Shown here: piece after piece, positions 6,231 to 33,830 of the stretch
Layout of the letters: each line of letters starts with the position of its first letter
Numbering within the stretch: position 1 is the stretch's first letter
Assembly: GCA_018436925.1 (NCBI GenBank)
Contig: JAHDKI010000030.1
Span: forward strand, 2,598-66,597
Source: Syntrophaceae bacterium
GTDB taxonomy: Bacteria > Desulfobacterota > Syntrophia > Syntrophales > Smithellaceae
Direction: 5' to 3'
DNA length: 64,000 nucleotides
The notes under the pieces: generated by a model
The model's input: only the letters and a program-made list of their open reading frames with translations
Databases searched by the model: none
What the model was told of the DNA's origin: nothing
Program-made: the position numbers and the translations under genes

Positions 6231-6234
6231 TGCG

Positions 6235-7569
6235 ATGAGATATTATCTGATTGCGTTTTTTTTGCTTATGGCCGTCTGGGCTCATGGGGCGCAGCTGCCC
6301 GACCGGGTCTGGATGAAAAGCGCGACGCAAAGCTTCACGCATGAATATGACGTTGCCATTGACGACGGAAGAATCTGGTACAAATCCCGTAAGTCATCCG
6401 AAGCGGAGCCCAGATGGAAGCTGCTGGGGACAACCGGCTTGCCCGCGTCCCAGCAGAAAAACTTTTCACCCCCGTCATCGGTGAAAGCCCTATCGGCCGA
6501 CGGCGACAATCTCATCGCCATAGGCGACAACGACGTGGTCTATTACATGAAGTGGTCCAGCCGGAAGTGGACCGATCACTGGGGACTGCCTCTCGCGCGG
6601 AAACTTCACCTGCCTCGCGACATCCGTTCCTGGTCGATCTCACACCGGGGATCGCTGGCCGGCGGCTATGCCGATATCGACGGCCATTTTCATCCGATCT
6701 GGGCGGGGGTCACCACCTTGTACGTCCTGAGCAAAGACGGGCTGAGCATTCAATATGCCGACCCCTGGCTGAAGGCGGATTTTGCACATGAAATCTGCCT
6801 GCCGCTCAGAAACCGCTTCCGGGCCAGAGCCCTTGCGGCCAGCGGCTCCACGCTGTTTGTGATTAACGACGCCGGAGATATGTACACCCGTCTTGCCGAT
6901 TTCGACACGCTGGGGCACAATCCGTTGATTGCCTACAGCTATGAACGCAAAATCCGCAGCGCGACGAAAGATAAGGACAAGCGCACCTTGCCGCCTGAAG
7001 ACTGGAAAAAGCAACCGTCCATTCCCGCCCGGCACGGGCGGATCAGCCCGTTCATCACCATTTTTCAAACAGGCCGGGGCAACGACGCCCGAACGCTGCG
7101 CGTCGAAGGCGTCAACCGGCAGGGGGTAAGCGGATTTTTTTCCAAACCGCTCCAGGCAAGCGCCTGGTCATTCACGCCGACCGGCGCGCCGCTCGAAAAG
7201 GCGCTGCTTTCGGCGGATGCCGGAGCCAAAGATGCGGGACCGGACCGGGAGAGATCGCTTCGGGGATCTTTACGAACATCTGAAGAATATGCCGTTTGGG
7301 TGGAAAGATTCAATCCGCCCTGCGCGGAGGCGCGCCTGGTCGTCCTTTTCGGAGAAGACCGCTTGCGCCTTCCTTTATTTATTGCGGCGACATCTTCGCA
7401 GGACCGCAAGATGAAAGGCGCGTTGCTCCTGCCCGACAAGCTCAAGGCCCAGTCGGACCGCAACCCCCGGTTGCGTCAATTTATCGAAAGCGTTTTTGGC
7501 TTAAAGACTGTCGTCAATATTCGCCTCAAGCTCGACAACAAGGATCAGGTTTTGATTCACCTTGATTGA
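6235..7569 (+). CDS. Secreted hypothetical protein, probably co-translated with the LRR/C92 gene
   Basis: Starts 4 nt after the upstream stop. N-terminal signal peptide is MRYYLIAFFLLMAVWAHGA. Recurrent DG..W/Y.. strand motifs (DDGRIWYKS, DNDVVYYMKW, TLYVLSKDG, LFVINDAGDMYT) hint at a beta-propeller-like repeat, which is inference. Confidence 0.6.
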   Translation: MRYYLIAFFLLMAVWAHGAQLPDRVWMKSATQSFTHEYDVAIDDGRIWYKSRKSSEAEPRWKLLGTTGLPASQQKNFSPPSSVKALSADGDNLIAIGDNDVVYYMKWSSRKWTDHWGLPLARKLHLPRDIRSWSISHRGSLAGGYADIDGHFHPIWAGVTTLYVLSKDGLSIQYADPWLKADFAHEICLPLRNRFRARALAASGSTLFVINDAGDMYTRLADFDTLGHNPLIAYSYERKIRSATKDKDKRTLPPEDWKKQPSIPARHGRISPFITIFQTGRGNDARTLRVEGVNRQGVSGFFSKPLQASAWSFTPTGAPLEKALLSADAGAKDAGPDRERSLRGSLRTSEEYAVWVERFNPPCAEARLVVLFGEDRLRLPLFIAATSSQDRKMKGALLLPDKLKAQSDRNPRLRQFIESVFGLKTVVNIRLKLDNKDQVLIHLD

Positions 7570-10044: not shown

Positions 10045-12840
10045 ATGATCGATTTGGCTTTCATTGTGCTTCTGCCTTTTGCCGGAAGCCTGCTTCCTTT
10101 TGCGGCCCGACGCTTGCGCCGGCCCTGGTGCACCTCGGCCGCCGTTATTCCCGCGGCGCTGACGCTTTTGCTTCTGATCCCGTATGTTCCCGGGATTCTG
10201 GGCGGCAAGACCTTTGTTTTTCATCAACCCTGGCTGGATGCCGCAGGCATGAGCCTGAGCCTGCGGCTCGACGGCTTGAGCTTCGTATTTGTTCTTCTGG
10301 TCTCGGGCATCGGCCTTCTGGTGACGCTGTATGCGCACTATTACCTTGCCGCCAAAGATCCCATGGGGCGTTTCTATGTTTATCTGCTGTGGTTCATGGG
10401 ATCGATGCTCGGCGTCGTGCTGTCGGAAAACCTGTTGTTGCTTTTTTTCTTCTGGGAACTGACCAGTCTGTCCTCATTTTTGCTGATCGGCTACTGGACA
10501 CACGATTCCGACGCGCGCAAAGGCGCGCGGATGGCGCTTATCGTCACCGGAGGCGGTGGGTTGGCGCTTCTGGCCGGAATTCTTCTTCTGGGGCGCATGG
10601 CCGGCAGCTATGAACTCTCCATCGTGCTGGCCTCGGGAGACCTGATCCGGAATCACACGCTTTACCCCGCGGCGCTCGTTTTGATTCTGCTGGGCGTTTT
10701 CACCAAATCCGCGCAGTTTCCGTTCCACTTCTGGCTGCCGCATGCCATGGCCGCGCCGACGCCCGTTTCGGCATATCTGCATTCGGCCACGATGGTCAAG
10801 GCGGGCGTGTTTCTTCTGGCGCGCCTGTATCCGGCGCTTTCCGGAACGGAGACCTGGTTTTATACCGTCACGCTGGTGGGACTCGCGACATTGCTTGTCG
10901 GCGCGGTCACAGCGCTCTTCCGGCATGATCTCAAGGGGCTTCTGGCCTATTCCACCATCAGCCATCTGGGGCTCATCACGCTGTTGTTCGGACTTAATTC
11001 CTCTCTGGCGGTGGTTGCGGCCGTCTTTCACATCATCAATCACGCGACGTTCAAGGCGTCGCTGTTTATGGCCGCGGGCATCATCGATCACGAAACCGGT
11101 ACGCGCGATATCCGCAGGCTCGGCGGCCTGTGGCGCTTTATGCCGCATACGGCAACCCTGGCCATGATCGCCGCGGCGGCCATGGCGGGCGTGCCGCTCT
11201 TCAACGGCTTTTTAAGCAAAGAAATGTTTTTTGACGAGGTGCTGCAGCTCAATATGGCCGCGCCGCTGCGGTTTTTCGTGCCGGTGGCGGCGACGCTGGC
11301 GGCGGTGTTTTCCGTGGCCTATTCGCTGCGATTCATCCATGACGTTTTTTTCAACGGCAAACCGTCCGATCTGCCGCACTATCCGCCCCACGAACCGCCG
11401 CGTTATATGAAGCTGCCCGTGGAAATTCTCGCGGGCGTCTGCCTGCTGGTCGGACTTCTGCCCGGCCTGACGGTGGCGCTTCCGCTTGCGGCCGCCGCAA
11501 AAGCCTCGCTGGGAGGAGCGCTTCCTTCCTACTCGCTGGCCATCTGGCATGGATTCAATCTTCCGCTCGCGATGAGCGCGATTGCGCTTATCGGCGGCGC
11601 CTGGCTTTATGTCAAGCGCAGGCGTTTTTTCGCGTGGAACCGGCGGCTGCCCAAACCGGACGCCGGCCGGATTTTCGAGGCCGCAACGAAGCGGATCGTT
11701 TTTGCCGCCTCCCGGTTCACCGCCTTTTGGGAAAACGCATCCCTGCAAAGCTACCTGGCCTGGATGCTGGCCGCGGCGCTGGCTGCGGCGGGCTTTCAGC
11801 TCATTTCGCTTGAGGCCCTGCATGGCGGCGTCGCGCTGGCGCCTGTCGATGAAGTTACGGCGGTGGCGGCCCTTCTTCTGATGGTTGCGACGCTGGCGAC
11901 GGTCGTCTGGCACAGACGACGATTGGTATCACTGGTGATGCTGAGCGTGGTGGGACTGATGGTGGCACTGGCCTTTGCGCGCTTTTCCGCGCCGGATCTG
12001 GCGCTGACGCAACTGTCGGTGGAAATGGTCACCATCATTCTCTTGATGCTGTCTCTTTTTTTCCTGCCCCGGACGACGCCCGTCGAATCGAGCCCGCTTC
12101 GGCGGGGCCGCGACATGGCGCTGGCCTCCGGCGCAGGCCTGTTGGTGGGGGGCCTGTCCTTTGCGATGCTTTCGCGCCCTTATGAAACCATTTCCGGTTT
12201 TTTTCTTCAAAAGAGCGTGCCGGAAGGCGGCGGCGCCAATGTGGTCAATGTCATTCTGGTGGACTTCCGAGGCTTCGACACGCTGGGCGAAATATCCGTT
12301 CTGGCCATCGCAGGGCTGGCGATCTACGCGATGATCGAGCAAATGAAACTCAACGTGCCTCAGACCGACGCGCTGAATCGCCCCTGGGCGATGGACGCCC
12401 ATCCGTTGATGCTCGTCAATCTCTCCCGCGTGATTCTGCCTCTGGCGCTTCTGATTTCCGTTTTCATTTTCTTTCGCGGCCACAACCTGCCGGGCGGCGG
12501 GTTCATCGCGGGGCTGATCACGGCCATTGCGCTGATTCTGCAATACATTGCAGGCGGCGCGGCCTGGACCTCCAAACGCTTCCGGGTAAATTTCCAGGTG
12601 CTGGCCGGGCTGGGCGTCGCCGTCGCGGGGCTGACCGGCGCGGCAAGCTTTTTCTTTCATCGTCCCTTTCTGACGAGCGCCTTCGGGCATGTGCGACTGC
12701 CGGCGCTGGGCGAGTTCGAGTGGGCCAGCGCCATGGCCTTTGATCTGGGTGTGTATCTGACTGTAGTCGGGGCGACGATGCTGATTTTATCGAATCTCGG
12801 GAAGCTCTCTACGGGACGGGTTTCGGGGAGGAAGATCTGA
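10045..12840 (+). CDS. mrpA: Na+(K+)/H+ antiporter Mrp/Mnh/Pha subunit A with fused subunit B (NuoL-like)
   Basis: 931-aa polytopic protein with NuoL/MrpA blocks (WELTSLSSFLLIGYW, PTPVSAYLHSATMVKAGVFLL). The C-terminal about 140 aa are MrpB-like. It is the first gene of a 6-gene operon with overlapping stops and starts. Confidence 0.9.
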   Translation: MIDLAFIVLLPFAGSLLPFAARRLRRPWCTSAAVIPAALTLLLLIPYVPGILGGKTFVFHQPWLDAAGMSLSLRLDGLSFVFVLLVSGIGLLVTLYAHYYLAAKDPMGRFYVYLLWFMGSMLGVVLSENLLLLFFFWELTSLSSFLLIGYWTHDSDARKGARMALIVTGGGGLALLAGILLLGRMAGSYELSIVLASGDLIRNHTLYPAALVLILLGVFTKSAQFPFHFWLPHAMAAPTPVSAYLHSATMVKAGVFLLARLYPALSGTETWFYTVTLVGLATLLVGAVTALFRHDLKGLLAYSTISHLGLITLLFGLNSSLAVVAAVFHIINHATFKASLFMAAGIIDHETGTRDIRRLGGLWRFMPHTATLAMIAAAAMAGVPLFNGFLSKEMFFDEVLQLNMAAPLRFFVPVAATLAAVFSVAYSLRFIHDVFFNGKPSDLPHYPPHEPPRYMKLPVEILAGVCLLVGLLPGLTVALPLAAAAKASLGGALPSYSLAIWHGFNLPLAMSAIALIGGAWLYVKRRRFFAWNRRLPKPDAGRIFEAATKRIVFAASRFTAFWENASLQSYLAWMLAAALAAAGFQLISLEALHGGVALAPVDEVTAVAALLLMVATLATVVWHRRRLVSLVMLSVVGLMVALAFARFSAPDLALTQLSVEMVTIILLMLSLFFLPRTTPVESSPLRRGRDMALASGAGLLVGGLSFAMLSRPYETISGFFLQKSVPEGGGANVVNVILVDFRGFDTLGEISVLAIAGLAIYAMIEQMKLNVPQTDALNRPWAMDAHPLMLVNLSRVILPLALLISVFIFFRGHNLPGGGFIAGLITAIALILQYIAGGAAWTSKRFRVNFQVLAGLGVAVAGLTGAASFFFHRPFLTSAFGHVRLPALGEFEWASAMAFDLGVYLTVVGATMLILSNLGKLSTGRVSGRKI

Positions 12841-13169
12841 TGGAGCTTCTCTATTCAATGGTTCTGGGAGGACTGGCCGCCGCCGGCGTCTATCTGCTGT
12901 TGCGGGGGCGCACGTTTCCGGTCGTCGTGGGTCTGACGCTGCTGAGCTATGCGGTGAACCTCTTTTTGTTCGCCACCGGACGGCTCGCGACGGGGCTTCC
13001 CGCCGTCATCGGACACAGTGAAACTTACGCCGATCCGCTGCCGCAGGCCCTGGTGCTCACCGCCATTGTGATCGGTTTCGCGCTGACGGCGCTCGCGGTC
13101 ATCCTGGCGCTGGCGGCGCTTTCCGCCTCCGGGCACGACGGCGTGGACGACGAAAAGGAGCAGCCGTGA
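12840..13169 (+). CDS. mrpC: Mrp antiporter subunit C (NuoK-like)
   Basis: Its ATG shares one nt with the mrpA stop. 109 aa with 3 TM segments, at the canonical position in the operon. Confidence 0.85.
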   Translation: MELLYSMVLGGLAAAGVYLLLRGRTFPVVVGLTLLSYAVNLFLFATGRLATGLPAVIGHSETYADPLPQALVLTAIVIGFALTALAVILALAALSASGHDGVDDEKEQP

Positions 13170-14689
13170 ATCATCTGCCGATCCTGCCCATTTTAATTCC
13201 TCTGTTTGCCGGCGCGATCATGGCGATGATTCCGGGCGATCGCCTGCCGCTCAAAAGACTTATATCGTCTTTGGCAGCATTCTTGCAGATTCCCGTCGCC
13301 GTCGGGCTTCTGATCGGGGCAGGCGGTGGCGTCCTGGTGTACCGCTTGGGCGACTGGCCCGCGCCGTTCGGCATTATTTTAGCGGTTGACCGTCTGTCGG
13401 CGCTCATGCTTTTTGTCGCCTCGATTCTGGCTGCGGCCGCCTGGCTATACGCCCTGCGCGGCGACGACCGCCAGGGACGGGGCTTTCACGCGCTTTTTCA
13501 GTTTCAGATAATGGGCATCTTCGGCGCTTTCCTCACCGGCGATCTGTTCAACCTGTTCGTGTTTTTTGAAATCCTGCTGATCGCTTCCTACGCGCTCTTG
13601 CTGCATGGCCGGACGACCGACCGCATCCGCGCGGGACTGCATTACGTCCTTCTCAATATTTTCGGATCTTCTTTGTTTCTGATTGCCGTGGGCGCGCTCT
13701 ACGCGATGACCGGCACGCTCAACATGGCCGACATGGCGCTTCGCATCGCTTCCGCCCCGCCTGCGGATGCGCCGCTTCTGGGGGCCGCCGGAACGCTTCT
13801 GATCATCGTCTTCGGCCTCAAGGCGGCCGTGTTTCCGCTTTATTTCTGGCTGCCGCGCGCGTATGCGGCCGCCGCGGCGCCGGTGGCCGCGCTGTTTGCC
13901 ATCATGACCAAAGTGGGACTATATTCGATCCTGAGGGTCCATACGCTGATTTTCGGCGCGGATGCAGGCGACCTGTCCGGGCTTGTCCACGAAGCGCTGT
14001 GGATCGTCGCCCTGATCACGCTGGTGGCCGGATGCATCGGAGCGCTTGGGGCCGCCTCGCTCGAAAGGCTTGTTGCGTATCTGGTTATCGTGTCGGTCGG
14101 AACCATTGCCGCCGGTCTGGCGCTGCAAACGCCCGAAGCGATTGCGGCGACACTGTACTATCTGATCCATTCCACCTGGATTGCCGGCGCTCTTTTTCTT
14201 CTGGCCGGAGAATTCGCCCGGATGCGCGGCGAGGCGATCGGCGGACGATTCGTCCCCGGCCCGCCCTTGCCCCGTCCCATGCTTTTGGGCGGCCTGTTTT
14301 TTGCCGCGGCGGTCTCCGTCGCGGGCATGCCGCCTCTGTCGGGTTTTATCGGCAAACTGCTTTTGCTGTCCATCGTGCCCACCGGTTGGCAGACGGTCTT
14401 TTTTTACGCCGCCTTACTGGGCGGAGGGCTTCTGGTGATCACCGCGCTTGGCCGCGCGGGCAGCACCCTCTTTTGGCGCACGGACGCCCGTCTGCCGGGC
14501 GCCGCCGGATGCGATGCCGTGCGGCTTTCCGCCGCCGTCCTCCTTTTAACCGCAGGTGTTTTGCTGGTGATTCTGGCCCAGCCGCTCATGGACTATCTGG
14601 AAGCGGCGGCTGCATCCCTCATCGATCCGAAAGAGTATATCCGGGCGGTTCTACCTGCGGTGTCAGGGGCCAAAGGAGGCGCGCCATGA
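13166..14689 (+). CDS. mrpD: Mrp antiporter subunit D (NuoM/N-like)
   Basis: GTG overlaps the mrpC stop (GTGA). 507 aa with proton-conducting membrane transporter motifs (FFEILLIASYALL, YFWLPRAY). Confidence 0.9.
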   Translation: MNHLPILPILIPLFAGAIMAMIPGDRLPLKRLISSLAAFLQIPVAVGLLIGAGGGVLVYRLGDWPAPFGIILAVDRLSALMLFVASILAAAAWLYALRGDDRQGRGFHALFQFQIMGIFGAFLTGDLFNLFVFFEILLIASYALLLHGRTTDRIRAGLHYVLLNIFGSSLFLIAVGALYAMTGTLNMADMALRIASAPPADAPLLGAAGTLLIIVFGLKAAVFPLYFWLPRAYAAAAAPVAALFAIMTKVGLYSILRVHTLIFGADAGDLSGLVHEALWIVALITLVAGCIGALGAASLERLVAYLVIVSVGTIAAGLALQTPEAIAATLYYLIHSTWIAGALFLLAGEFARMRGEAIGGRFVPGPPLPRPMLLGGLFFAAAVSVAGMPPLSGFIGKLLLLSIVPTGWQTVFFYAALLGGGLLVITALGRAGSTLFWRTDARLPGAAGCDAVRLSAAVLLLTAGVLLVILAQPLMDYLEAAAASLIDPKEYIRAVLPAVSGAKGGAP

Positions 14690-19610: not shown

Positions 19611-20666
19611 TCAGGCGTTGGTTTTCTTTTCCGCCGTTTCCTTGAGTTCCGTAAAGATCATGCGACCCGCCGTAGTCTGCAAAACACTGGTCACGACGAC
19701 GTCCACCGTTGAATTGATCAGTTTTTGCGCATGATCCACAATGATCATCGTTCCGTCGTCCAAATAGCCCACACCCTGGCCGGCCTCCTTGCCTTCGCGG
19801 ATGATTTTGACCGACATCTGTTCTCCGGGCAGAACAACCGGCTTCATGGCATTGGCCAATTCGTTGACATTGAGCACCCGAACGCCCTGAAGCTCGGCAA
19901 CTTTATTGAGGTTGTAGTCGTTGGTCAGAAGCTTGGCGTTCATTTTTTTGGCCAGCGCGACGAGTTTGCCGTCCACCCCCTTGATCTTGGGAAAATCCTG
20001 CTCGACAATGTCGATATTGATGGTGGTGATTTTCTGCATGCGATTTAAGACATCCAGGCCGCGCCGCCCCCGGGACCGCTTCATCGAATCGGACGAATCC
20101 GCAATAAACTGCAGCTCGTTCAAGACAAAACGCGGAACGATCAGATCCCCTTCCATGAAACCCGCATCGCAGATATCGGCGATCCGGCCGTCAATGATGA
20201 CGGACGTATCCAGAACCCGATGATCGGCATGTCCCTTGGCGTCGGAAGCTGAAAAACTGAATTCCTCAACTTTTTTCGACCCCAAAACCAGACCCAGATA
20301 CCCCAAAATCCCTGTGAGCAAAAGAAAGAGCCACGGCACCACCTGCTGATTTTCCTTGATTTTAATCAATAGATTCAATCCAAAGCCCAAAATCAAGGCG
20401 ATAAGCAGGCCGATGGTCATCCCGATCACACCGCCGGCGATCACCCGCAACGATAGTTTACGAATGTCCTTTTCCAGCCGGATCACAAGAAGCGCAACCA
20501 GTAAGCCTATAATAAAGCCGATAACAGCCCGAAGAATCAGATATGAACTGTCTTGCGCCATGTAATACGCAATCGCGTACCCGCTTGCGGAACAGGCCGC
20601 GACCAAAAGAATTCTTACAATCAATTCGATTCCACCTCCTCCTGAAATATTATTGATAATCAACAA
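19611..20666 (-). CDS. PIN/TRAM domain membrane protein (YacL-like)
   Basis: Four N-terminal TM helices, a PIN domain (VLDTSVIIDGRI), and a C-terminal TRAM-like beta domain. It sits at the conserved position upstream of ispD/ispF/gltX, as in Bacillus yacL. Confidence 0.8.
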   Translation of the reverse strand: MLIINNISGGGGIELIVRILLVAACSASGYAIAYYMAQDSSYLILRAVIGFIIGLLVALLVIRLEKDIRKLSLRVIAGGVIGMTIGLLIALILGFGLNLLIKIKENQQVVPWLFLLLTGILGYLGLVLGSKKVEEFSFSASDAKGHADHRVLDTSVIIDGRIADICDAGFMEGDLIVPRFVLNELQFIADSSDSMKRSRGRRGLDVLNRMQKITTINIDIVEQDFPKIKGVDGKLVALAKKMNAKLLTNDYNLNKVAELQGVRVLNVNELANAMKPVVLPGEQMSVKIIREGKEAGQGVGYLDDGTMIIVDHAQKLINSTVDVVVTSVLQTTAGRMIFTELKETAEKKTNA

Positions 20667-20767
20667 TTTAAAAAAAATGGAGGCAATGTTTCCGCTTTTT
20701 TAAATCGAAAAAAAAGCGCACCTGTCTTTCTCAAATTGTCAAAGAGCAAAAAAGGAAATCCAAAAGG

Positions 20768-21253
20768 TTATTGAACCGTAAAAATCATCTGTAATTCCCG
20801 CTCAACCTTGGATTCCTGGGCGTTGGTGGCTACGGAAATCTCTTTGACCAAGAGGTTTTTGGCCGTATCCATCATTTTCCGCTCGCCGAATGACAAATTC
20901 TTGTCGCTTTTGAGAATGAACAAATCCCTCAAGACGCTGGCAATTTCGAAAACCGACCCGGTTTTGATCTTTTCGAGATACTCCCGGTAACGCTTGTTCC
21001 AGGTCTGCTTATCGATGGTCACGTCTTTATTACGAAGAATTTCATAGACTTTTGGAATTTCCTTTTCCATAATGACCTCGCGCAGGCCGACGGCTTTGGC
21101 CGACGTGGTCGGAATCATGATTTTCATTCCGTTGCCCATGATTTTCATAACGTAAAAGGGCTGTTTCTTGCCCATGACTTCTCTATTTTCAATGGCTTCA
21201 ATGACCCCGACCCCCTGGGCCGGATACACCGCTAAATCCCCTACCTTAAACAT
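20768..21253 (-). CDS. carD: CarD/CdnL family RNA-polymerase-binding transcription regulator
   Basis: MFKVGDLAVYPAQGVGVIEAIE ... FYVMKI is the canonical CarD_TRCF N-terminal domain. 161 aa. Confidence 0.9.
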   Translation of the reverse strand: MFKVGDLAVYPAQGVGVIEAIENREVMGKKQPFYVMKIMGNGMKIMIPTTSAKAVGLREVIMEKEIPKVYEILRNKDVTIDKQTWNKRYREYLEKIKTGSVFEIASVLRDLFILKSDKNLSFGERKMMDTAKNLLVKEISVATNAQESKVERELQMIFTVQ

Positions 21254-21289
21254 TTTTGACCTCGCTTTATTTTACCATAATAACGTGGC

Positions 21290-21318
21290 AGACTACCACA
21301 TTAAGGCCATTTCGTCAA
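21290..21318 (-). promoter_or_regulatory. Candidate sigma70 promoter of carD
   Basis: On the minus strand: TTGACG (21318-21313), a 17-nt spacer ending in TGG (TGn extended -10 context), then TAGTCT (21295-21290). It lies about 35 nt upstream of the carD ATG. Confidence 0.35.
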
Positions 21319-21445
21319 TGATCAATACAATTTACTGAAATGCTTCAGGATTGAAGGGCGGCAGGAGGTTCCGGGCCGCAGACAGTCAAAAAGTGCGCCG
21401 CATCTTGCAGGCAAAGGAATTTTTTGTCTCCGGCAGACCTTTTTT

Positions 21446-22423
21446 TCAAATCAATCGTTCCTTCATGGACGCAATAACCTGTTGAACCGATCCGCCCTGC
21501 CTTTCGAGCCGCTCCAGCAAGCCGGCCAGTCGCAGGCAAACAGCGTCATCTTGAAAATCGGACAGATACCGAACTGCGCCCAAATATTTCCCGTACTGAA
21601 ACAGCCGTTGACGGGCCTCGTCCCAGGACAGGTAGCCGTCAATGGTTTCAAGCAGCCTGGCTTTGTCTTCGGGCAGCGTTCCTTCGAGCTCTTCAAGCAG
21701 GTTCAGAACATGATCGGAAACCAGTCTCGTTTGTTGAAGGTTCAGCAAATCGATAAAAAGGCGAATTTCCCGCACAATTCCGTCATCGGAGGGTCTTTCA
21801 AAATCGCCGCGGCGCGCCATGGCGTCAAGAGCCGTGCCGGGAAGCACATGCAGTGTCCGCAGGCGAATGAGATCCGGCTTGATGTCATTGACCACATCGG
21901 CGCTCATTCGCGCATGCTGTTCGGACAGAAGGCGGCCGCCCAGACCGGGCATCACATAAACCGACAGCTCGATTCCTGCCTTTCGGATGCTTAACCCCGC
22001 CTTCCGATGCCGGTCGGCGTCAACCCCTTTGCGGACGAAAGACAAGACCTCGTCGCATCCGCTTTCCAGACCCATATGAACCCGCGTCAGGCCGGCCCGG
22101 CGAAGATCCGCCAACTCTTCGAGGGGCTTGCGGGCGAGAGTGCCCGATCGCGCATAGCACGTCACCCGGCCGATGAAAGGAAGCTGGCGCCGAAGAAACT
22201 GCAACACGTCCATCAAATCGGGTGTTTTCCAAACCAGCGGATCGGCATCCTGCAAAAACACGTTGCCTGTTTGCCGGTACAGCCAGACGGCCACTCTCAG
22301 AAAACCGTCGCTTGCCGCCCCTGAATCAAAAAGATGTTTCATGACGCCGCGCGTCACACAGCCTGCGTGTCCGAGCGACGCGGACAGATCCCGAATCCGG
22401 TCAACCGTTTCCCGGATCAGCAC
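21446..22423 (-). CDS. Radical SAM protein; 5' boundary unresolved, with coding sequence continuing at least to 22528
   Basis: TIM-barrel radical SAM core blocks are present (RVHMGLESGCDEVL, YVMPGLGG). The SAM-cluster cysteines (RLVRNCPWNRCVFCRSY) are encoded in-frame upstream of the listed GTG at 22423. See the finding on this gene. Confidence 0.7.
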   Translation of the reverse strand: MLIRETVDRIRDLSASLGHAGCVTRGVMKHLFDSGAASDGFLRVAVWLYRQTGNVFLQDADPLVWKTPDLMDVLQFLRRQLPFIGRVTCYARSGTLARKPLEELADLRRAGLTRVHMGLESGCDEVLSFVRKGVDADRHRKAGLSIRKAGIELSVYVMPGLGGRLLSEQHARMSADVVNDIKPDLIRLRTLHVLPGTALDAMARRGDFERPSDDGIVREIRLFIDLLNLQQTRLVSDHVLNLLEELEGTLPEDKARLLETIDGYLSWDEARQRLFQYGKYLGAVRYLSDFQDDAVCLRLAGLLERLERQGGSVQQVIASMKERLI

Positions 22424-22575
22424 AATATCCTTTTTAACCTCCTGCGCGCTGCGCAGGGAAAAAGATGTCCCGGCGTAGCTGCGGCAAAAAACGCACCGGT
22501 TCCAGGGACAGTTCCGGACCAGACGGATCGTTCAAAACGGACATGGCCTGACCTGCAAGAAAGACTTTCCGCCGG

Positions 22576-23388
22576 CTAGGGCAGATAGAAAAGCGGATTG
22601 CGCGCTTTGCCCTTGAGCCGGACTTCGAAATGCATAAAGACTTTTCCGGACGCGTCTTTGACGCCTGCCGATCCGATGACTTGCCCTTGAGTTACAGACT
22701 GGTCCGTCTGGACGCGACGATTTTTCAGATGGGTGTAGACCGTGGCCAGATCATTTGCATGGCGGATGATGACCGTTTCGCCGTAATCCTTCAGCTCGGC
22801 TGAAAAAATCACCGTCCCGGCGGCTGCAGCTTGAATCGGCGCGGAAGGCGGGCAGACAATCCGAATCCAGTTGTGATAGGTCTTATTGGGTTGCAGGCCG
22901 AAACGCGTCGTCACGGTGCCCCGCACCGGCCAGGCCAGCTTGCCTTTGGCCGCGGCGACCTCCGCTCTGGATGCTTTGGGCGCGGGCTGCGGCGCGGGTG
23001 CCGGCGCGGGTTTAACCGCTGGGGACGGCGCGGGTGTCGGCGCCTTCCGGTCCGGATCGGGCGGGCGGTCTTGGGGCGGTTTCGTTTCCGACGCCGCAGA
23101 GGGGTCTGCGGAAACCGGCGGCGGGGCGACTTTGGCCACTACCATGACGTCTTCAATGACCTGATCCGCATCGGGAATAAAAAGCACCTGCCCTTCCCGG
23201 ATCAGGGAGACTTCTTCCAGATGATTGATTTCAGCCAGGTCATCGAGCGAAATCGAATAGGCCTTTGCGATGCTGTATGCGGTTTCGCCTTTTTTGACGA
23301 TGTGATAAACACCTGTCGCACGGCCGGGCCTGATCTCGGGCGCGCTGCAGGCGACCGCCAGCGCCAGGCACATAAGAATCAACGGCAT
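22576..23388 (-). CDS. nlpD: NlpD-like lipoprotein: LysM domain plus degenerate LytM (M23) domain
   Basis: ATG at 23388 gives MPLILMCLALAVAC with lipobox LAVAC; the longer 23484 start would overlap pcm. LysM is YHIVKKGETAYSIAKAYSISLDDLAEIN, followed by a Pro/Ala-rich linker. The M23 domain has substituted metal ligands (YHNWIR instead of HxxxD, FMHFE instead of HxH), as in amidase activators. Confidence 0.8.
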   Translation of the reverse strand: MPLILMCLALAVACSAPEIRPGRATGVYHIVKKGETAYSIAKAYSISLDDLAEINHLEEVSLIREGQVLFIPDADQVIEDVMVVAKVAPPPVSADPSAASETKPPQDRPPDPDRKAPTPAPSPAVKPAPAPAPQPAPKASRAEVAAAKGKLAWPVRGTVTTRFGLQPNKTYHNWIRIVCPPSAPIQAAAAGTVIFSAELKDYGETVIIRHANDLATVYTHLKNRRVQTDQSVTQGQVIGSAGVKDASGKVFMHFEVRLKGKARNPLFYLP

Positions 23389-23438
23389 TTTGAACCCGCG
23401 CGCGCCGGCAAAAAAAACGCGGAGCCATCGATGCCGCT

Positions 23439-24092
23439 TCACTCTTTCCACCCGCTTTCCCCGATCAGGGACACAAAGCGGCAACCGCCTAAGTCTTCTG
23501 GCAGAAGTTCATCGGGCGCATCCGCCTTGCGGGTCATCTTATACAGGGTCTGGACATCGCGGCCGCCGATGGGCGCCACCAGTCTGCCGCCGGGCGCAAG
23601 TTGTTCGATAAGATATGGCGGAATGCGCGGCGCGGCCGCCGTGGTGATGATCGCGTCAAACGGCGCCTCTTCTTTCCATCCCCAGGATCCGTCTCCAACG
23701 CGAATCGCAACGTTGTAAAAATTGAGATGATCGAGAATTCTACGGGCCCGCGAGGCCAACGATGCGATGCGTTCGATGGAAAAAACCCGGTCGCAAAGCG
23801 ACGCGAGAATCGCGGTTTGATACCCCGAGCCGGTGCCGATTTCCAAAACGCGCTCCTTTCCCGTCAGGGACAGGGCCTGCGTCATCAGCGCGACAATATA
23901 AGGCTGGGAAATGGTTTGGCGCTCTCCAATGGGCAGCGGATTGTCGCTGTAGGCCGATGCGATCAGCCCCTCATCCACAAATAAGTGCCGGGGGATGGTT
24001 TCCATGGCTTTGAGCACACGCTCATCGCTAATGCCGCGCGCCCGGATCTGGCCCTCCACCATGCGCAGGCGCTGCTTTTTGTATCGGTCCAT
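23439..24092 (-). CDS. pcm: Protein-L-isoaspartate O-methyltransferase
   Basis: [10 protein letters not shown] and [13 protein letters not shown] (SAM motif I). 217 aa, in the classical pcm-nlpD order. Confidence 0.9.
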
Positions 24093-24671: not shown

Positions 24672-26276
24672 ATGCGCGCTGATATGCACTTTCCTTTATC
24701 CGAAGCTGTCCGCGGAGCCTACCGCAAGGGGCAGGAAGACGAAACACTCGAACCGCTGGTTGCCGCATCGGAAGCCCAAATCCCCATCGGCCGCATCCGC
24801 CCGGATGACGCCGTCATTTTCTACAATATCCGCGGCGAGCGCGAAATTGAACTCACCCGCGCGCTCACCGAAGACGACTTCTCCGAATTCCCTGTGGACC
24901 CGAAGCTGAATCTCGCCTTTGCGACGATGATCGAATACGACCGGCGCCTCAAGACGGCCGTGGCCTTCCCTCCTGAAACGCAGCTGGCCGACACGCTGGG
25001 CGATGTGATTGCCGCTGCGGGGTTGAGGCAGGTCCGGATCACCGAAGCGGAAAAAGCGGTCCATGTCGGTTTTTTCTTAAACGGCAAAAAAGCGGATCCG
25101 CTGCCCGGCGAAGAACGGATTATCGTTCCCACGCGCAAAGACGTGGCTTTGTTTGACGAGGCGCCGGAAATGTCCATCGACCAGATCGCTCAAACCGCTG
25201 TGGAAAAAATCCGCGATCCGCAATGCTCGGTGATCATCGTGAATTTTCCCAACGTGGATGTCGTGGGACATATCGAAAACGAACAGGCGGTCATCCGCGC
25301 CGTCGAAGCGGTGGACCGGCATCTGGGACAGGTGCTGTCCGAAGCCCGAACCATCAACCTGCCGGCTCTGGTCACGGCGGACCACGGCACGGTGGAAAAA
25401 TGGCTCTACCCCGACGGCGCCGTCGACACCGGTCATACAACGAGCCGGGTTCCTTTCATCCTGATCCATCCCGACAAGGATCTGAAACTCGCCTCCGCGG
25501 GCGAGCTGACCGATATCGCGCCCACCATGCTCTCCCTTCTGGGGCTTGCCGTCCCGCAAGTCATGACCGGACGGTGCCTGATTGACAAGCCCGTCGGTCA
25601 CCCGGACGCAAAGAAGCGCCTCTTGCTGATCATCCTCGACGGATGGGGACACAATGACAACGCTGAAGGCAATCTGATTGCCCGGGCGCGCACGCCCGTC
25701 ATGGACGAGCTCCTCAAGCGCCACCCCTGGACAACGCTCGACGCCTCCGGAACGGCCGTCGGGCTGCCCGACGGCACGGTCGGCAATTCAGAGGCGGGCC
25801 ATCTGCATATCGGCGCCGGACGGCGCATTTACTCCGACCGCCTGAAGATCGACCAGGCCATCGCCGAAGGCGGTTTTTTTTCCAATCCCGCTTTCACCGG
25901 GGTCATGAACACAACCAAAAAGCGGGGCAAGGCCCTGCATCTGATGGGCATCGTTTCCTTCTTCAGCTCTCACGGCTCGATTGAGCACTTGTTCGCTCTC
26001 ATGGAAATGGCCAGAAGGCAGGGGATCAAAGACCTCTACATTCACGGCATGCTGGGCCGGCGCGGCGAACTGCCGGAAAGCGGCGCCCGGTACATCCGCC
26101 AGGTGGAGGAAAAATGTCAAAGTCTCGGCTTGGGGCGCGTGGTCTCCGTGATCGGCCGCTACTGGTCGATGGATCGCGAGGAAAACTGGGACCGGATTGA
26201 AAAAACCTACCGGATGCTGATTTCCGGCGACGGGGAAAAAGTCCCCGCGGAGTCGACGCATGAACACAACAGTTAA
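24672..26276 (+). CDS. gpmI: 2,3-bisphosphoglycerate-independent phosphoglycerate mutase, circularly permuted domain order
   Basis: All iPGM blocks are present but in rearranged order. The first about 304 aa carry [42 protein letters not shown] and the C-terminal MTGRCLI. Then comes a linker, then the canonical N-terminus: [45 protein letters not shown]. Confidence 0.85.
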
Positions 26277-26790
26277 TCAAACGCGAATCGAAGTGGCCCA
26301 AGGCGACATCACCCTGGAAACCGTTGACGCCATTGTCAATGCGGCCAACAGCCGCCTGGCCGGCGGCGGCGGTGTGGACGGCGCCATTCACCGGGCGGGA
26401 GGCCCGGCGATTATGGACGCGTGTCGGCAAATCGGCGGCTGTGCGACCGGCGAGGCCGTCATCACCACCGGCGGCAATCTTCCCGCCCGCTTTGTCATCC
26501 ACACGGTGGGGCCGGTCTGGCGCGGCGGCCAGCATGGCGAGGCCGGGCTTCTGGCTGCGGCCTACCAAAACAGCCTTGCCCTCGCGTCGCAAAAGGGTTT
26601 GCAAAGCATCGCCTTTCCGGCTATAAGTTGCGGGGCTTACGGTTATCCGGTCTCAGACGCCGCCTGCCTGGCGCTTGCCGCCTGCATGGAATTCGCCCGC
26701 GCGGAAACGGGAATCCGGCTGATCCGCCATGTTCTGTTCGATCGAGTCACGTATGATGTGTTTGCCCAGGAATTTGCGAAACGGATTTAA
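26260..26790 (+). CDS. Macro-domain protein (O-acetyl-ADP-ribose deacetylase / ADP-ribose binding, YmdB-like)
   Basis: [37 protein letters not shown] ... [14 protein letters not shown] is the canonical macro-domain signature. Overlaps the gpmI 3' end by 17 nt. Confidence 0.85.
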
Positions 26791-26804: not shown

Positions 26805-28823
26805 ATGGATGCAAGGCCGACTTACCAGCAACTTGAAGACAAGATCGCCGAGCTGTCCGATAGGATTCATCAGCAGATCAATCTGGAAAACCAGTACCGC
26901 AATCTGGTGGACTCCACAAGCGACTCGCTGTATCTGGTCGATGAAGACGGCCGCTACCTTTTCATGAATCAAAACCACGCCCGGCGCCTGGGGCGGCCCC
27001 GCGAAAAGATCGCCGGATTGTCGTATCTGGATTTTCATTCCCCCGAACAATACAAGCACTTCGCGGCCAAAATCAAAACCGTCTTTGAGACGGGCATCTC
27101 CATCCGCGACGAACACTCCAGCGAACGGGACAACCGCTATTTTCTGCGGACGTTTTCGCCGGTTCGGGATCCGCGCGACGCCAAACGGATCGTCGCCGTT
27201 TCAGTGGTGTCCAAAGACATCACCGACAGACGACAGACGGAGGAGGCCCTCAAGCGCTCGGAAGAAAAATACCGCCAGCTCATCGAACACTCTTCCGAAG
27301 CGATCTTCATTCTCAATCAGGGCCGCTTCAGTTACGCCAATCCCCGAACCGGGCAGATGCTGGGCCATGCCCAGGACGAGCTCCCGCTTATTTCATTTCT
27401 CAACCTGGTCATCGCTGAAGACCGCGAGATGGTGTTCGACCGCCAGAAAGCCATTCTGGAGGGAGATCATTCAACAACGACCTACAATTTCCGCATCGTC
27501 AACCGAGACGACGCCACGATCTGGGTCGAAACCAACAGCGTGTTTATTCTCTGGGAAAAACAGCCCTCCACGCTGAACTTCATGCGGGATATCACCCGTC
27601 AGAAGCGCACGGAAACCCGGCTTCTACAGGCCCAGAAAATGGAATCCATCGGCACGCTGGCCGGCGGCATCGCCCATGATTTCAATAATCTCCTCATGGG
27701 GATTCAGGGCCACACCTCTTTGGCCCTTTTGAATCAGGACAAGAGCGATCCCAATTTCGAGCATCTCAAAACCATCGAATCGCTGGTGGCCAGCGGCGCG
27801 AATCTGACCAAACAGCTTCTGGGCTTCGCCCGCGGCGGCAAATATGAAGTCAAGCGAGTCGATCTCAACGCGCTGATCACAAAGACGTCCGATACCATCG
27901 GCCGCACCAGAAAGGACATCTCCATCCATCGCCAACTGGAGAAGAATCTCTGGACGACGGATGTGGACCAGGGGCAGATCGAACAGGTTCTGCTCAATTT
28001 GCTGGTCAATGCCTCACAGGCCATGCCCGGAGGCGGCGAACTCTACCTCGAAACCCAAAACATCGTTCTGGATGAAAGCCGATTCAAACCGGTCGCCAGG
28101 CGCAAAGGCCCCTTTGTTAAAATCTCCGTCACCGATACGGGCATCGGCATGGATGAAAAAACAAAAGACCGCATTTTCGAACCTTTTTTCACCACCCGTG
28201 AAATGGGGCGCGGCACGGGTTTGGGGCTGGCCTCCGCATACGGCATCATCAAAAATCACAGCGGCTTTATCAATGTGTACTCGGAAAAGGGGCAGGGAAC
28301 GACTTTCAACATCTATCTGCCCGCATCCATCCGCAAAGGAACGCAGGACAGTCTGCCCGACGCCGAAACCGAACCCGAAACGGCGGTGTTTGACGAGACG
28401 ATTCTGATCATCGACGACGAAGCCATGATCCTCAACGTCGCCACGGACATGCTCAAGACGCTGGGCTACAGGATTCTGACGGCGAACAACGGACCGGCGG
28501 CCATCGAACTGTACCGCCAGCAGATGAACCGCATCGATCTGATCATTCTCGATATGATCATGCCGGACATGAGCGGCTCGGAAGTTTTCGATGAACTCAA
28601 AAGGATCAACCCCCGGATCAAAATCCTTTTATCGAGCGGATACAGTTTAAACAGCCAGGCCGCGCAGATTCTGGACCGCGGATGCGACGGTTTTATTCAG
28701 AAACCCTTCACGCTCCGCGACATCTCCCGCCAGATGAGGGAAATCCTCGGCAACAAGACCAAAGCGTCGCCCCAACTGCCGTTGCCGATCATCCTCGACG
28801 CCCGGCAAGAGGACGGATTATGA
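26805..28823 (+). CDS. Hybrid sensor histidine kinase: coiled coil, 2 PAS, HisKA (AHDFNN type), HATPase_c, REC
   Basis: H-box [14 protein letters not shown]. ATPase N, G1 and G2 boxes are [16 protein letters not shown] and GTGLGL. The C-terminal receiver is ILIIDDE...[14 protein letters not shown]...KPF. Confidence 0.85.
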
Positions 28824-29311
28824 GGAAAAGACGCTCGGGAAGCGCCCCGCAACCGCTGGGCGATATCCTTTATGCCGCGCTCAAACGGCGCGGCATGACG
28901 GCCGGTCTGGACATTCACGCGGTCCTCAAACTCTGGCCCGCGGCGGTCGGACCCCGCATCGCGGCGCAAACCCGACCCGACGGGCTGCGAGCAGGCCGGC
29001 TTTTCGTCCGCGCCGCCTCGTCCGTCTGGGTTCAGCAGCTGCATTTTCTCAAACAGGAAATTATTGAAAAGCTCAATGCGCTTTGCGGCAAGCCAACCGT
29101 TCGGGAAATTCTCTTCACTGTCGGGCACATTCCGGCGGCCGAGCTCTCCTTGCCGCTGCAAACACCACCCGCACTGGAGGCGCGAGACCGGAAAATGATC
29201 GAGGAGTCCACCGCCGGACTGGCCGATCGGGAACTGGCGGCGATTCTCCGGCGCGTCATGGAAAAAGAAATCAGCCGGAGGCGCCGTCTGGAGGCGCTGC
29301 GAGGCCGGTAA
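28820..29311 (+). CDS. DUF721 (DciA-like) protein
   Basis: ATGA overlap with the kinase stop. PQPLGDILYAALKRRGM ... VLKLWPAAVGPRIAAQTRPDGLRAGRLFVRAASSVWVQQLHFLKQEIIEKLN is the typical DUF721 pattern. Confidence 0.7.
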   Translation: MRKRRSGSAPQPLGDILYAALKRRGMTAGLDIHAVLKLWPAAVGPRIAAQTRPDGLRAGRLFVRAASSVWVQQLHFLKQEIIEKLNALCGKPTVREILFTVGHIPAAELSLPLQTPPALEARDRKMIEESTAGLADRELAAILRRVMEKEISRRRRLEALRGR

Positions 29312-30071
29312 AGACGTCTTTCATGTCCTTCGTGTAGACGCCCCGCGATTCGTAGATAAAAAGAGGCGGTTCCACTTTCAGTTCTTCCCGCGCGAAAAGC
29401 CTTCCTTCGGCCAGAACGAATTGCGCGGGCGACGAAGAATCGGAAAACACCAGCCTCATCCGTTTAGGTTCAATCCGGTGGCGCCGGAATTCGCAGACCA
29501 GGTGCGCCAGTCTCGAGGCGGGATAGATCGTGCAGACCCGTCCGGAGGGCTTGAGCACCTGCCGGGCCGCCGATAGAAACACGGGCAAAGATCCCAGAAT
29601 TTCGTGACGGGCGGCCGCTTTTTCTTCCTGCGGATTGATTCGGCCCGATTGCAGACGGCGATAGGGCGGATTGAAAATGACGGAATGAAAAGAGGCGGGT
29701 TTGAACAGCCGGCGGATGTCTTGCGCATCGCCTGCCACAATTTCCGCACGGTCCGACAGGCCATTGCTTTGCACATTGAGGCGGGCCAGAGCAGCCAGTT
29801 GCGGCTGGATCTCCAGCCCCGTCCAGCGGGCGCCCGGCCGGTTTCCGGCCATGACCAGCAAGATAATGCCGTTTCCGCAGCCGAGATCCAGATGGGATCC
29901 CCGGACCGGCGGCTTGGCAAAATGCGCAAGAATCAGCGAATCCAGATTGAACCGGTAGCCCCGGCGACTCTGGTGAATCACCAGCGCCCCGCCCAGAATC
30001 TCGTTGCACGTTTCATCCGTCAACATCGGCAGCCCCTCACCGGACAGGTTGTCCACATACGGCCAGCTCAT
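29271..30071 (-). CDS. SAM-dependent N6-adenine methyltransferase, tRNA1(Val) m6A37 (YfiC/TrmN6)-like
   Basis: SAM motif LDLGCGNGIILL and the catalytic NPPY tetrad (VIFNPPYRR). 266 aa. Its 3' end overlaps the convergent DUF721 gene by 41 nt. Confidence 0.75.
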   Translation of the reverse strand: MSWPYVDNLSGEGLPMLTDETCNEILGGALVIHQSRRGYRFNLDSLILAHFAKPPVRGSHLDLGCGNGIILLVMAGNRPGARWTGLEIQPQLAALARLNVQSNGLSDRAEIVAGDAQDIRRLFKPASFHSVIFNPPYRRLQSGRINPQEEKAAARHEILGSLPVFLSAARQVLKPSGRVCTIYPASRLAHLVCEFRRHRIEPKRMRLVFSDSSSPAQFVLAEGRLFAREELKVEPPLFIYESRGVYTKDMKDVFTGLAAPPDGASG

Positions 30072-30244
30072 GACACAGGCTTGGCCGCGAAATCAAGTTT
30101 TTTTGACGGCCTTCCGACGCCGCTCATTCGGCAACGACGCAAGCGCCGTCATTCAGCATTGACTTTCCCGCTGACTTCGGCTTATGAAACTCACCGCTTC
30201 CGGTCTGGTCCGGTTCACCGCCCTTAAACGAAAGGAAAAATATC

Positions 30245-30514
30245 ATGGCCTCAAAATCCTCCAAAAGCCCTGTTTGGATTCTTGCCGCCATCGGCTTTGT
30301 CATAGGCGGCCTGGCGGGTTTTCTCTTCCGTCCTTCAGCGTTTCTCATCGGCCAGCTGCCCTTCGACGTGGTCATCACGCGCGGCATCTTTCTGCAGGGC
30401 ATGGATCGCGTGATGGTCGGCCTGGCACAGTCCTCCTTCAACCAGATGCTTGTCATCGCCTGCATCGGCGCGGCCGTCGGTCTGGCCCTGGGATCCCTCA
30501 TTGCCAGAAGATGA
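30245..30514 (+). CDS. Small membrane protein of unknown function
   Basis: AGGA lies 9 nt upstream of the ATG. Two clear TM segments (VWILAAIGFVIGGLAGFLF, MLVIACIGAAVGLALGSLI). The overlapping minus-strand ORF looks less protein-like. Confidence 0.5.
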   Translation: MASKSSKSPVWILAAIGFVIGGLAGFLFRPSAFLIGQLPFDVVITRGIFLQGMDRVMVGLAQSSFNQMLVIACIGAAVGLALGSLIARR

Positions 30515-30800
30515 CTCGCGGCGGTTCCTGAAAACAAAACCGCATCGCACATCGAGCGGGGAAAGGCCCGCGGCGTTTCCGAATTTCAATTGACACGCCG
30601 GGTCGAATCTCCTATACTTTCCGCCACAAAACCAAACGGCTTTTTGAAACATCCACGCTTTAACATCAACGGGAACGATTTCAAATGGGCAGAATCGATC
30701 CCCCGGCTGAACACCGCCCAGGCGCCGTTGCCCATCCGCGGCGGACATCCAGGCCTTCTTAGGCCGCGTCGGCGCGGTTTTGGAAAAGAGACGTCATTGC

Positions 30801-33826
<3,026 letters not shown>

Positions 33827-33830
<4 letters not shown>

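Follow-up and report, generated by a model that had tools for sequence, protein, structure and literature searches.

The DNA analysed here is a stretch of 64,000 nucleotides (64 kb) from a Syntrophaceae bacterium, hereafter the window, and the gene under study is a single open reading frame (ORF) on its forward strand, which encodes a circularly permuted protein of the cofactor-independent phosphoglycerate mutase (iPGM) family. A first-pass annotation, made from the sequence letters, had described such an ORF at positions 24672 to 26276, and it was found exactly there, with a length of 534 aa. The parts of the ORF are listed below, with equivalent residues numbered as in the iPGM of Geobacillus stearothermophilus (PDB entry 1EJJ).

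24672..26276, forward strand: circularly permuted iPGM-family enzyme, whole ORF, 534 aa plus stop (ORF call, Pfam, TIGR01307, phmmer, tblastn)
24672..24701, forward strand: new N-terminus, aa 1-10, opened in the loop equivalent to 1EJJ residues ~212-217; length and sequence vary among homologues (phmmer)
24702..24977, forward strand: transferase domain part 2, aa 11-102, equivalent to 1EJJ 218-310, with FYNIRGERE, R54 (R261) and R57 (R264) (alignment)
24978..25586, forward strand: phosphatase domain C-part, aa 103-305, equivalent to 1EJJ 311-510, with the ancestral C-terminus MTGRCLID (Pfam, phmmer, alignment)
25587..25607, forward strand: linker KPVGHPD, aa 306-312, between the ancestral C-terminus and the ancestral N-terminus; both its sequence and its length vary, its predicted local distance difference test (pLDDT) score is low, and it evolves nearly neutrally
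25608..25832, forward strand: phosphatase domain N-part, aa 313-387, equivalent to 1EJJ 2-76, with D323 (D12) and the nucleophile S373 (S62) in GNSEAGH (alignment)
25833..26237, forward strand: transferase domain part 1, aa 388-522, equivalent to 1EJJ 77-211, with H434 (H123), R464 (R153), R496 (R185) and R502 (R191) (alignment)
26238..26276, forward strand: new C-terminal tail, aa 523-534 (12 aa, pLDDT below 50), plus stop (ORF call, AlphaFold2 model)

The circular permutation of an iPGM within a single ORF, as the first-pass annotation had proposed, is borne out by the block coordinates obtained with phmmer, Pfam, TIGR01307 and tblastn. In the phmmer comparison with the PDB, residues 218-510 of 1EJJ align with aa 11-305 of the ORF (208 bits) and residues 2-211 with aa 313-522 (202 bits), with an identity of about 40-42% over both blocks. 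These are the two off-diagonal segments that had been expected, and normal collinearity was not seen. All PDB matches of the protein are iPGMs, every one of them aligned as two blocks in swapped order, and the PDB iPGMs themselves are in the canonical order (11 of 11 distinct sequences). When the two aligned blocks of 1EJJ were joined in permuted order and this query was searched against the window with tblastn, a single collinear high-scoring segment pair of 513 aa was obtained, with 41.9% identity and an E value of 1.8e-128. No second segment resembling an iPGM, the cofactor-dependent phosphoglycerate mutase (dPGM) or the archaeal-type iPGM (ApgM) was found by tblastn in the 64-kb window.

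Both Pfam domains whose coordinates bear on the proposal are present and each is split in two stretches, PF01676 (Metalloenzyme) with 196.9 bits and its best stretch at aa 99-292, and PF06415 (iPGM_N) with 187.9 bits and its best stretch at the C-terminal end (aa 393-523, profile positions 1-131). TIGR01307 also matches in two stretches, and its 498.1 bits pass the cutoff of 330.65. The profiles of ApgM (TIGR00306) and of phosphopentomutase (DeoB) give weak matches to the region of aa 164-297 only (E 1e-8 to 1e-3, far below the cutoffs). These enzymes share with the window protein the metalloenzyme core of the alkaline phosphatase superfamily, but carry their own non-homologous cap domain (PhosphMutase) and are not permuted relatives of it.

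The order of the segments along the chain is transferase-C, phosphatase-C, linker, phosphatase-N and transferase-N, and not the canonical phosphatase-N, transferase and phosphatase-C. The rotated segments lie in one ORF without a retained duplication and are conserved in the lineage, as is the case in natural circular permutants. Both segments together span 1EJJ save one 6-residue loop, with the ORF beginning 10 aa ahead of the equivalent of residue 218 and ending 12 aa past that of residue 211. The termini share this one loop (~211/218) with no duplicated overlap, which agrees with the statement that the chain ends where the new N-terminus begins, and the linker falls within the interval that had been given for it (nt about 25581-25617). 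In the phosphatase C-part, K128 corresponds to K336, D196 and H200 to D403 and H407, D237 and H238 to D444 and H445, and H255 to H462.

The domain limits of 1EJJ, which we take to be 1-76 plus 311-511 for the phosphatase domain and 77-310 for the transferase domain, are consistent with the Pfam coordinates obtained here. The alignment places both ancestral termini in the phosphatase domain, where they are now fused, and the new termini in a surface loop of the transferase domain. The insertion topology is, by this alignment, inverted, with a contiguous phosphatase domain (aa ~103-387) predicted to separate the two parts of the transferase domain (aa 1-102 and 388-534), and both hinges between the domains appear to be kept. 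The AlphaFold2 model, built with 24 family members, has a pLDDT of 83 and a predicted template modelling (TM) score of 0.80, with confidence dropping at the linker (309-311) and the new termini, among other stretches. In the Foldseek search of this model against the PDB, the top 22 matches are all iPGMs, over ~300 columns with a TM score of ~0.5, which is the outcome expected of a sequence-order-dependent aligner confronted with a permutant. Structure prediction, which had been put forward as a check, has given a confident model, and the PDB entries that match it best are iPGMs.

Conservation and phylogeny of the permuted chain

More than 120 clusters in the homology search are 64-93% identical to the window protein and collinear with it over 97-100% of the query. 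The scan for relatives covered one genome per GTDB species and gave 459 relatives confirmed by tblastn, of which the best 80 were fetched. All of these 80 belong to the Syntrophales (Smithellaceae and Syntrophaceae) and match residues ~1-527 of the query in one piece, and they include closed chromosomes of metagenome-assembled genomes (MAGs) as well as the isolate Syntrophus buswellii DM-2, in which the orthologue WP_408998307.1 is found at 5974-7566 of NZ_CP175563.1 (L072). Collinear orthologues are also carried by S. gentianae (85% identical to the protein of S. buswellii) and by S. aciditrophicus SB (80% identical), in the latter on a chromosome of 3,179,300 bp. Examples of complete genomes with the permuted gene are NZ_CP175563.1, OY820932.1, OY821638.1 and OY764159.1. 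The search for the same junction in related genomes, which the first-pass annotation had named as a test, has thus found it in at least 80 Syntrophales species genomes, in three cultured Syntrophus species and in closed chromosomes, and the three isolate genomes contradict an ORF that is split or in canonical order.

Between the window gene and its 78%-identical orthologue in L001, the ratio of nonsynonymous to synonymous substitution rates (dN/dS) is ~0.17 overall and lies at 0.11-0.25 in each of the four domain segments, while a stretch of 10 residues at the linker is nearly unconstrained (nonsynonymous differences pN 0.51 vs synonymous differences pS 0.75). Purifying selection acts on all four segments, and the linker alone evolves freely. 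The conservation across genomes, the synteny and the dN/dS rule out both a pseudogene and the fusion of two partial genes. It is practically certain that the permutation is real and selected.

The exhaustive phmmer search covered 1.84 billion cluster representatives, and among the best 150 representatives 12 are collinear with the query and 138 show the canonical two-block pattern. One breakpoint loop is common to all permuted proteins, in which 10-18 residues lie between positions 508 and 6. Two groups of permuted proteins can be told apart. Group 2 consists of the window family together with P0121, P0130, P0147, P0162, P0170 and P0190; its named members include HDD45277.1 of Ca. Desulfofervidus auxilii and one protein from a Pseudomonadota MAG, and S-SHG, RGERE, ESEK and GNSEAGH are common to it. 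In the re-permuted alignment this group is monophyletic in 200 of 200 neighbour-joining (NJ) bootstraps, which points to a deep, monophyletic permuted clade that reaches beyond the Syntrophales, for example to Ca. Desulfofervidus.

Group 1 (P0129 and P0144, possibly also P0124 and P0215) has the same breakpoint loop as the window protein and a similar linker length, with 10-13 aa between positions 508 and 6. Unlike the window protein, its members keep the canonical motifs, with practically all of the columns that are conserved in canonical iPGMs (as defined below), including D151, G152, D154 and V122. They are placed among canonical iPGMs in the NJ trees and are not robustly joined to the window clade; the sister of group 2 includes a group-1 member in 48 of the 200 replicates. 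P0129 (L088, 7001-8626) and P0144 (L092, 4041-5585) keep all canonical motifs and are seen on several independent contigs; they would either have been permuted independently or descend, along a slowly evolving lineage, from one common permutation. P0124 is a permuted match that spans an entire contig of 1520 bp and may be an artefact or something out of the ordinary, and so may P0215, in which a permuted iPGM module occupies residues ~3861-4375 of a predicted protein of 5027 aa on a Logan contig of 15.6 kb.

Catalytic residues and altered motifs

The conservation of residues was scored in an alignment of 120 collinear close homologues together with the re-permuted 1EJJ. All the catalytic and metal-binding residues that the first-pass annotation had listed have counterparts in the window protein, namely D12, S62, H123, R153, R185, R191, R261, R264, K336, D403, H407, D444, H445 and H462. 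With the exception of H407, which is kept in 119 of the 120 close homologues, all of them are invariant (120/120). The same holds at greater distance, given that the nucleophile S62 and the metal ligands D12, D403, H407, D444, H445 and H462 are kept in 11 of 11 members across the deep permuted clade, as is the basic cluster formed by H123, R185, R191, R261, R264 and K336, while R153 is kept in only 9 of the 11.

Two segments that had been equated with the canonical motifs GGVHSH and LDGRD do align with them, but are substantially changed, reading SSHGSIEH and MLGRRG in the window protein. In the window family SFFSSHGS stands for the canonical SDGGVHSH and LGRRG for LDGRD, and both departures are invariant in the alignment of 120 homologues. 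The canonical baseline was taken from 134 canonical representatives, in which 80 columns are at least 90% conserved and D151, G152 and D154 are each conserved at 99%. The near-invariant transferase-domain motifs GGVHSH and LDGRD, including Asp154, are absent from the window protein. In the iPGM of B. stearothermophilus, Asp154 is presumably a substrate contact.

When compared with canonical GpmI/iPGM (1EJJ and 1O98; TIGR01307; PF01676 and PF06415), the window protein has the same two domains, nucleophilic Ser, binuclear-metal ligands, His123, Lys336 and Arg153/185/191/261/264, and iPGM structures are the best PDB matches of its predicted fold. It differs in that its old termini are fused and its new termini lie at ~211/218, so that the phosphatase domain is contiguous and the transferase domain split, and in the two changed motifs, the loss of Asp154 and the substitutions V64A, D263E and N447T. 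The view of the first-pass annotation that the enzyme looks functional is probably right: the catalytic residues are intact, but with Asp154 lost and two motifs of the transferase domain changed, phosphoglycerate mutase (PGM) function is probable and not certain.

Gene neighbourhoods

Directly downstream of the permuted gene, and overlapping its 3' end by 17 nt, lies the following gene.

26260..26790, forward strand: macro-domain gene, a probable operon partner within the Syntrophales only (Pfam Macro, 2.8e-46)

This gene is found directly downstream on the same strand in 75 of the 80 Syntrophales loci, and pcm lies upstream, divergently transcribed, in 74 of them. Given that the macro-domain gene is absent beside the distant clade members, it represents lineage-specific synteny; as a functional clue it was set aside for this reason, with no functional link to PGM apparent. 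Between pcm and the permuted gene, in the divergent orientation, there is a small conserved ORF of about 120-132 aa (window 24092-~24455, reverse strand), for which the 182-aa ORF call is over-long; its homologue occupies the same position in S. buswellii DM-2 (L072 5353-5751, reverse strand), and no Pfam match was found for it. Further upstream, at 19611-23484 on the reverse strand, the window carries genes for a PIN-TRAM protein, CarD, a radical-SAM protein and a LysM-M23 peptidase (NlpD-like), together with pcm. Downstream, at 26805-33830 on the forward strand, follow two hybrid histidine kinases with PAS domains and a methyltransferase. The neighbours on both sides are of a housekeeping or regulatory kind. 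Upstream of the permuted gene no sigma-70-like promoter and no obvious Shine-Dalgarno sequence were found, and the search for an RNA element gave one sub-threshold chance Rfam match only. No glycolytic genes are found near the permuted gene, and there are no tRNA genes in the entire window. At 10045-14689 on the forward strand, large polytopic membrane proteins (931 and 507 aa) look, from their translations, like cation/proton antiporters of the Mrp/Mnh type, and the strongly negative AT skew of -0.3 and the 61% GC at 10-16 kb match these genes and reflect ordinary codon-composition bias.

The distant members of the clade are found in other surroundings. In L090 (921-4949), the gene for P0278 is followed 2 nt downstream by an ApgM-like gene and then by a PRK-family kinase of 398 aa, with LacI, KduI and a GFO/IDH/MocA oxidoreductase further downstream; this cluster possibly encodes a pathway for sugar-acid phosphates in which two different enzymes resembling PGMs take part. 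In contigs resembling Ca. Desulfofervidus (L081 839-9572; L083), a gene for 2,401 aa with PPDK_N, a phosphoenolpyruvate-utilising, ATP-binding domain, and with faint P-loop kinase matches shares its last 44 nt with the permuted gene. Two distant members (L087 2217-8572; L084 8666-14038) adjoin ATP-binding cassette (ABC) importers, each with a periplasmic binding protein and a double permease fused into one chain (549 and 618 aa). One of these importer operons runs LysR, substrate-binding protein (SBP), fused permease and TOBE_2 ATPase, with the permuted gene last, and the other importer-adjacent member also adjoins a GDPD gene. Fbp/Afu-like systems of this sort are known for the import of phosphorylated compounds.

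Function of the permuted enzyme

The whole of these observations is best explained by a permuted enzyme of the iPGM family that is most likely a working Mn-dependent mutase of 3-phosphoglycerate (3PG) and 2-phosphoglycerate (2PG), an explanation to which we give a probability of about 0.7. Its physiological reaction would probably be the interconversion of 3PG and 2PG, with both the catalytic activity and the substrate read from the sequence. The two domains would close over the substrate, the phosphate of 3PG would be passed to Ser373 at the binuclear Mn site, the cluster of Arg, His and Lys residues would hold and re-orient the glycerate, and the phosphate would be handed back to give 2PG; the reverse direction would serve gluconeogenesis. 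The intact residues of the chemistry, the cluster for an anionic substrate and the passing of the TIGR01307 equivalog cutoff make such a mutase the most likely assignment. In Table S1 of Foster et al. 2010 (PMC2964296), S. aciditrophicus SB is listed with a single bacterial-type iPGM and without a dPGM, and comparison of the orthologues identifies this iPGM as the permuted protein. The permuted topology is also compatible with a glycolytic role, because the gene for P0129, which has the canonical motifs, overlaps the stop codon of pgi by 4 nt.

Several points weigh against this explanation. Asp154 is replaced by G or S in 11 of 11 members of the permuted clade, and the clade-wide changes comprise V64A, V122S, D154G/S, D263E, G409x and N447T/x, with D151G and G152R limited to the Syntrophales and P0121. 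The two-domain iPGM fold has a prediction as its basis. The NCBIfam equivalog NF003897, which is used by PGAP, gives 438.3 bits, which fails the cutoff of 862, and this is because the permutation lowers the score. Neither the Syntrophales neighbourhood, with pcm and the macro-domain gene, nor the varied neighbourhoods of the distant clade members are glycolytic. S. aciditrophicus SB also has three archaeal-type iPGM homologues, which could supply PGM activity (PMC2964296).

An unlikely, although not negligible, alternative is that the permutant has been neofunctionalised, so that the phosphoserine and metal chemistry has been kept for a different phospho-acid or sugar-acid, or for a phosphatase or phosphotransferase reaction, with ApgM homologues such as those of S. 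aciditrophicus supplying the glycolytic PGM. The fact that Asp154 and other near-invariant canonical residues have been lost clade-wide in the domain that holds the substrate speaks for it, as does the variability of the DGRD motif across the clade (LGRRG, LDGRS, LDRPG and FNRHG). The same is true for the surroundings of three clade members, one lying 2 nt upstream of an ApgM-like gene in the cluster with the PRK-family kinase, LacI, KduI and the oxidoreductase, one last in the importer operon with LysR, and one beside the GDPD gene and an ABC importer. Nonetheless, H123, R185, R191, R261, R264 and K336, which form an anionic pocket of phosphoglycerate size, are invariant clade-wide, the TIGR01307 cutoff is passed, S. 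aciditrophicus is without a dPGM or a canonical iPGM, and the contexts differ by lineage, so that no single alternative substrate is indicated. Bacterial ApgM-like paralogues are often not PGMs, an example being the subfamily TIGR02535, a proposed homoserine kinase. It is doubtful that the remodelled pocket (Asp154 lost, Val122Ser and an extra Arg in the Syntrophales) gives a substrate or reaction other than 3PG/2PG, and the candidates for a shifted function, a mutase of another phospho-(sugar-)acid or a phosphotransferase linked to the import of phospho-compounds, are equally tentative. If the function has indeed shifted, the family would be a topologically and functionally new branch of the alkaline phosphatase superfamily.

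It is very improbable that the protein is a decaying or inactive relic, that is, a non-catalytic pseudoenzyme with a structural or regulatory role. The altered motifs of the transferase domain and the lack of an obvious Shine-Dalgarno sequence or sigma-70 promoter upstream would fit such a relic, but pseudoenzymes usually lose the nucleophile and metal-ligand residues, which here do not vary in a clade whose members have diverged to 37% identity, and the low dN/dS also argues against it. A chimeric assembly join or collapsed tandem duplication near nt 25600, which the first-pass annotation had given as a possible refutation, is excluded, with nothing specific in its favour other than the unrelated short-contig match P0124, which could itself be an artefact. 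Against it, at least 80 independent genomes, isolates and closed chromosomes among them, agree in junction, breakpoint and gene order, the flanking genes are conserved on both sides, the composition is uniform, and the window holds no duplicated iPGM fragments.

To our knowledge, few natural circular permutations are found among core glycolytic enzymes. Full-text searches of the literature found no description of a permuted iPGM, just as none had been known to the first-pass annotation. The Syntrophus gene was counted as an ordinary iPGM by Foster et al. (PMC2964296), and permutation goes unmentioned in a 2025 survey of 338 iPGMs. Eukaryotic and bacterial glutathione synthetases are natural circular permutants of one another (cited in PMC2876114), and they likewise have a homologous fold with a rotated chain order that can hide homology or upset annotation; they differ in their unrelated fold and chemistry, and the window protein in addition swaps which domain is the insert.

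The window protein is no one-off but belongs to a large family already present in databases under generic names, and the novelty lies not in the gene itself but in recognising its topology and the clade. The permuted orthologues, such as WP_408998307.1 of S. buswellii, are named "alkaline phosphatase family protein" by RefSeq/PGAP, in line with the failed NF003897 cutoff, while older GenBank and JGI records name them iPGM. The PGM step may appear missing or be mis-assigned in automated reconstructions of syntrophic degraders of fatty acids and aromatic compounds such as Syntrophus and Smithella. The loss of Asp154 throughout the clade poses a concrete question on the role of a near-universal residue of iPGMs. 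With one breakpoint in proteins with and without the canonical motifs, the permutation may have preceded and enabled their divergence in sequence, or this loop may simply be the only permissive site. The family represents a natural experiment on the folding order, the hinge mechanics and the tolerance to domain insertion of a two-domain enzyme that works by hinge closing.

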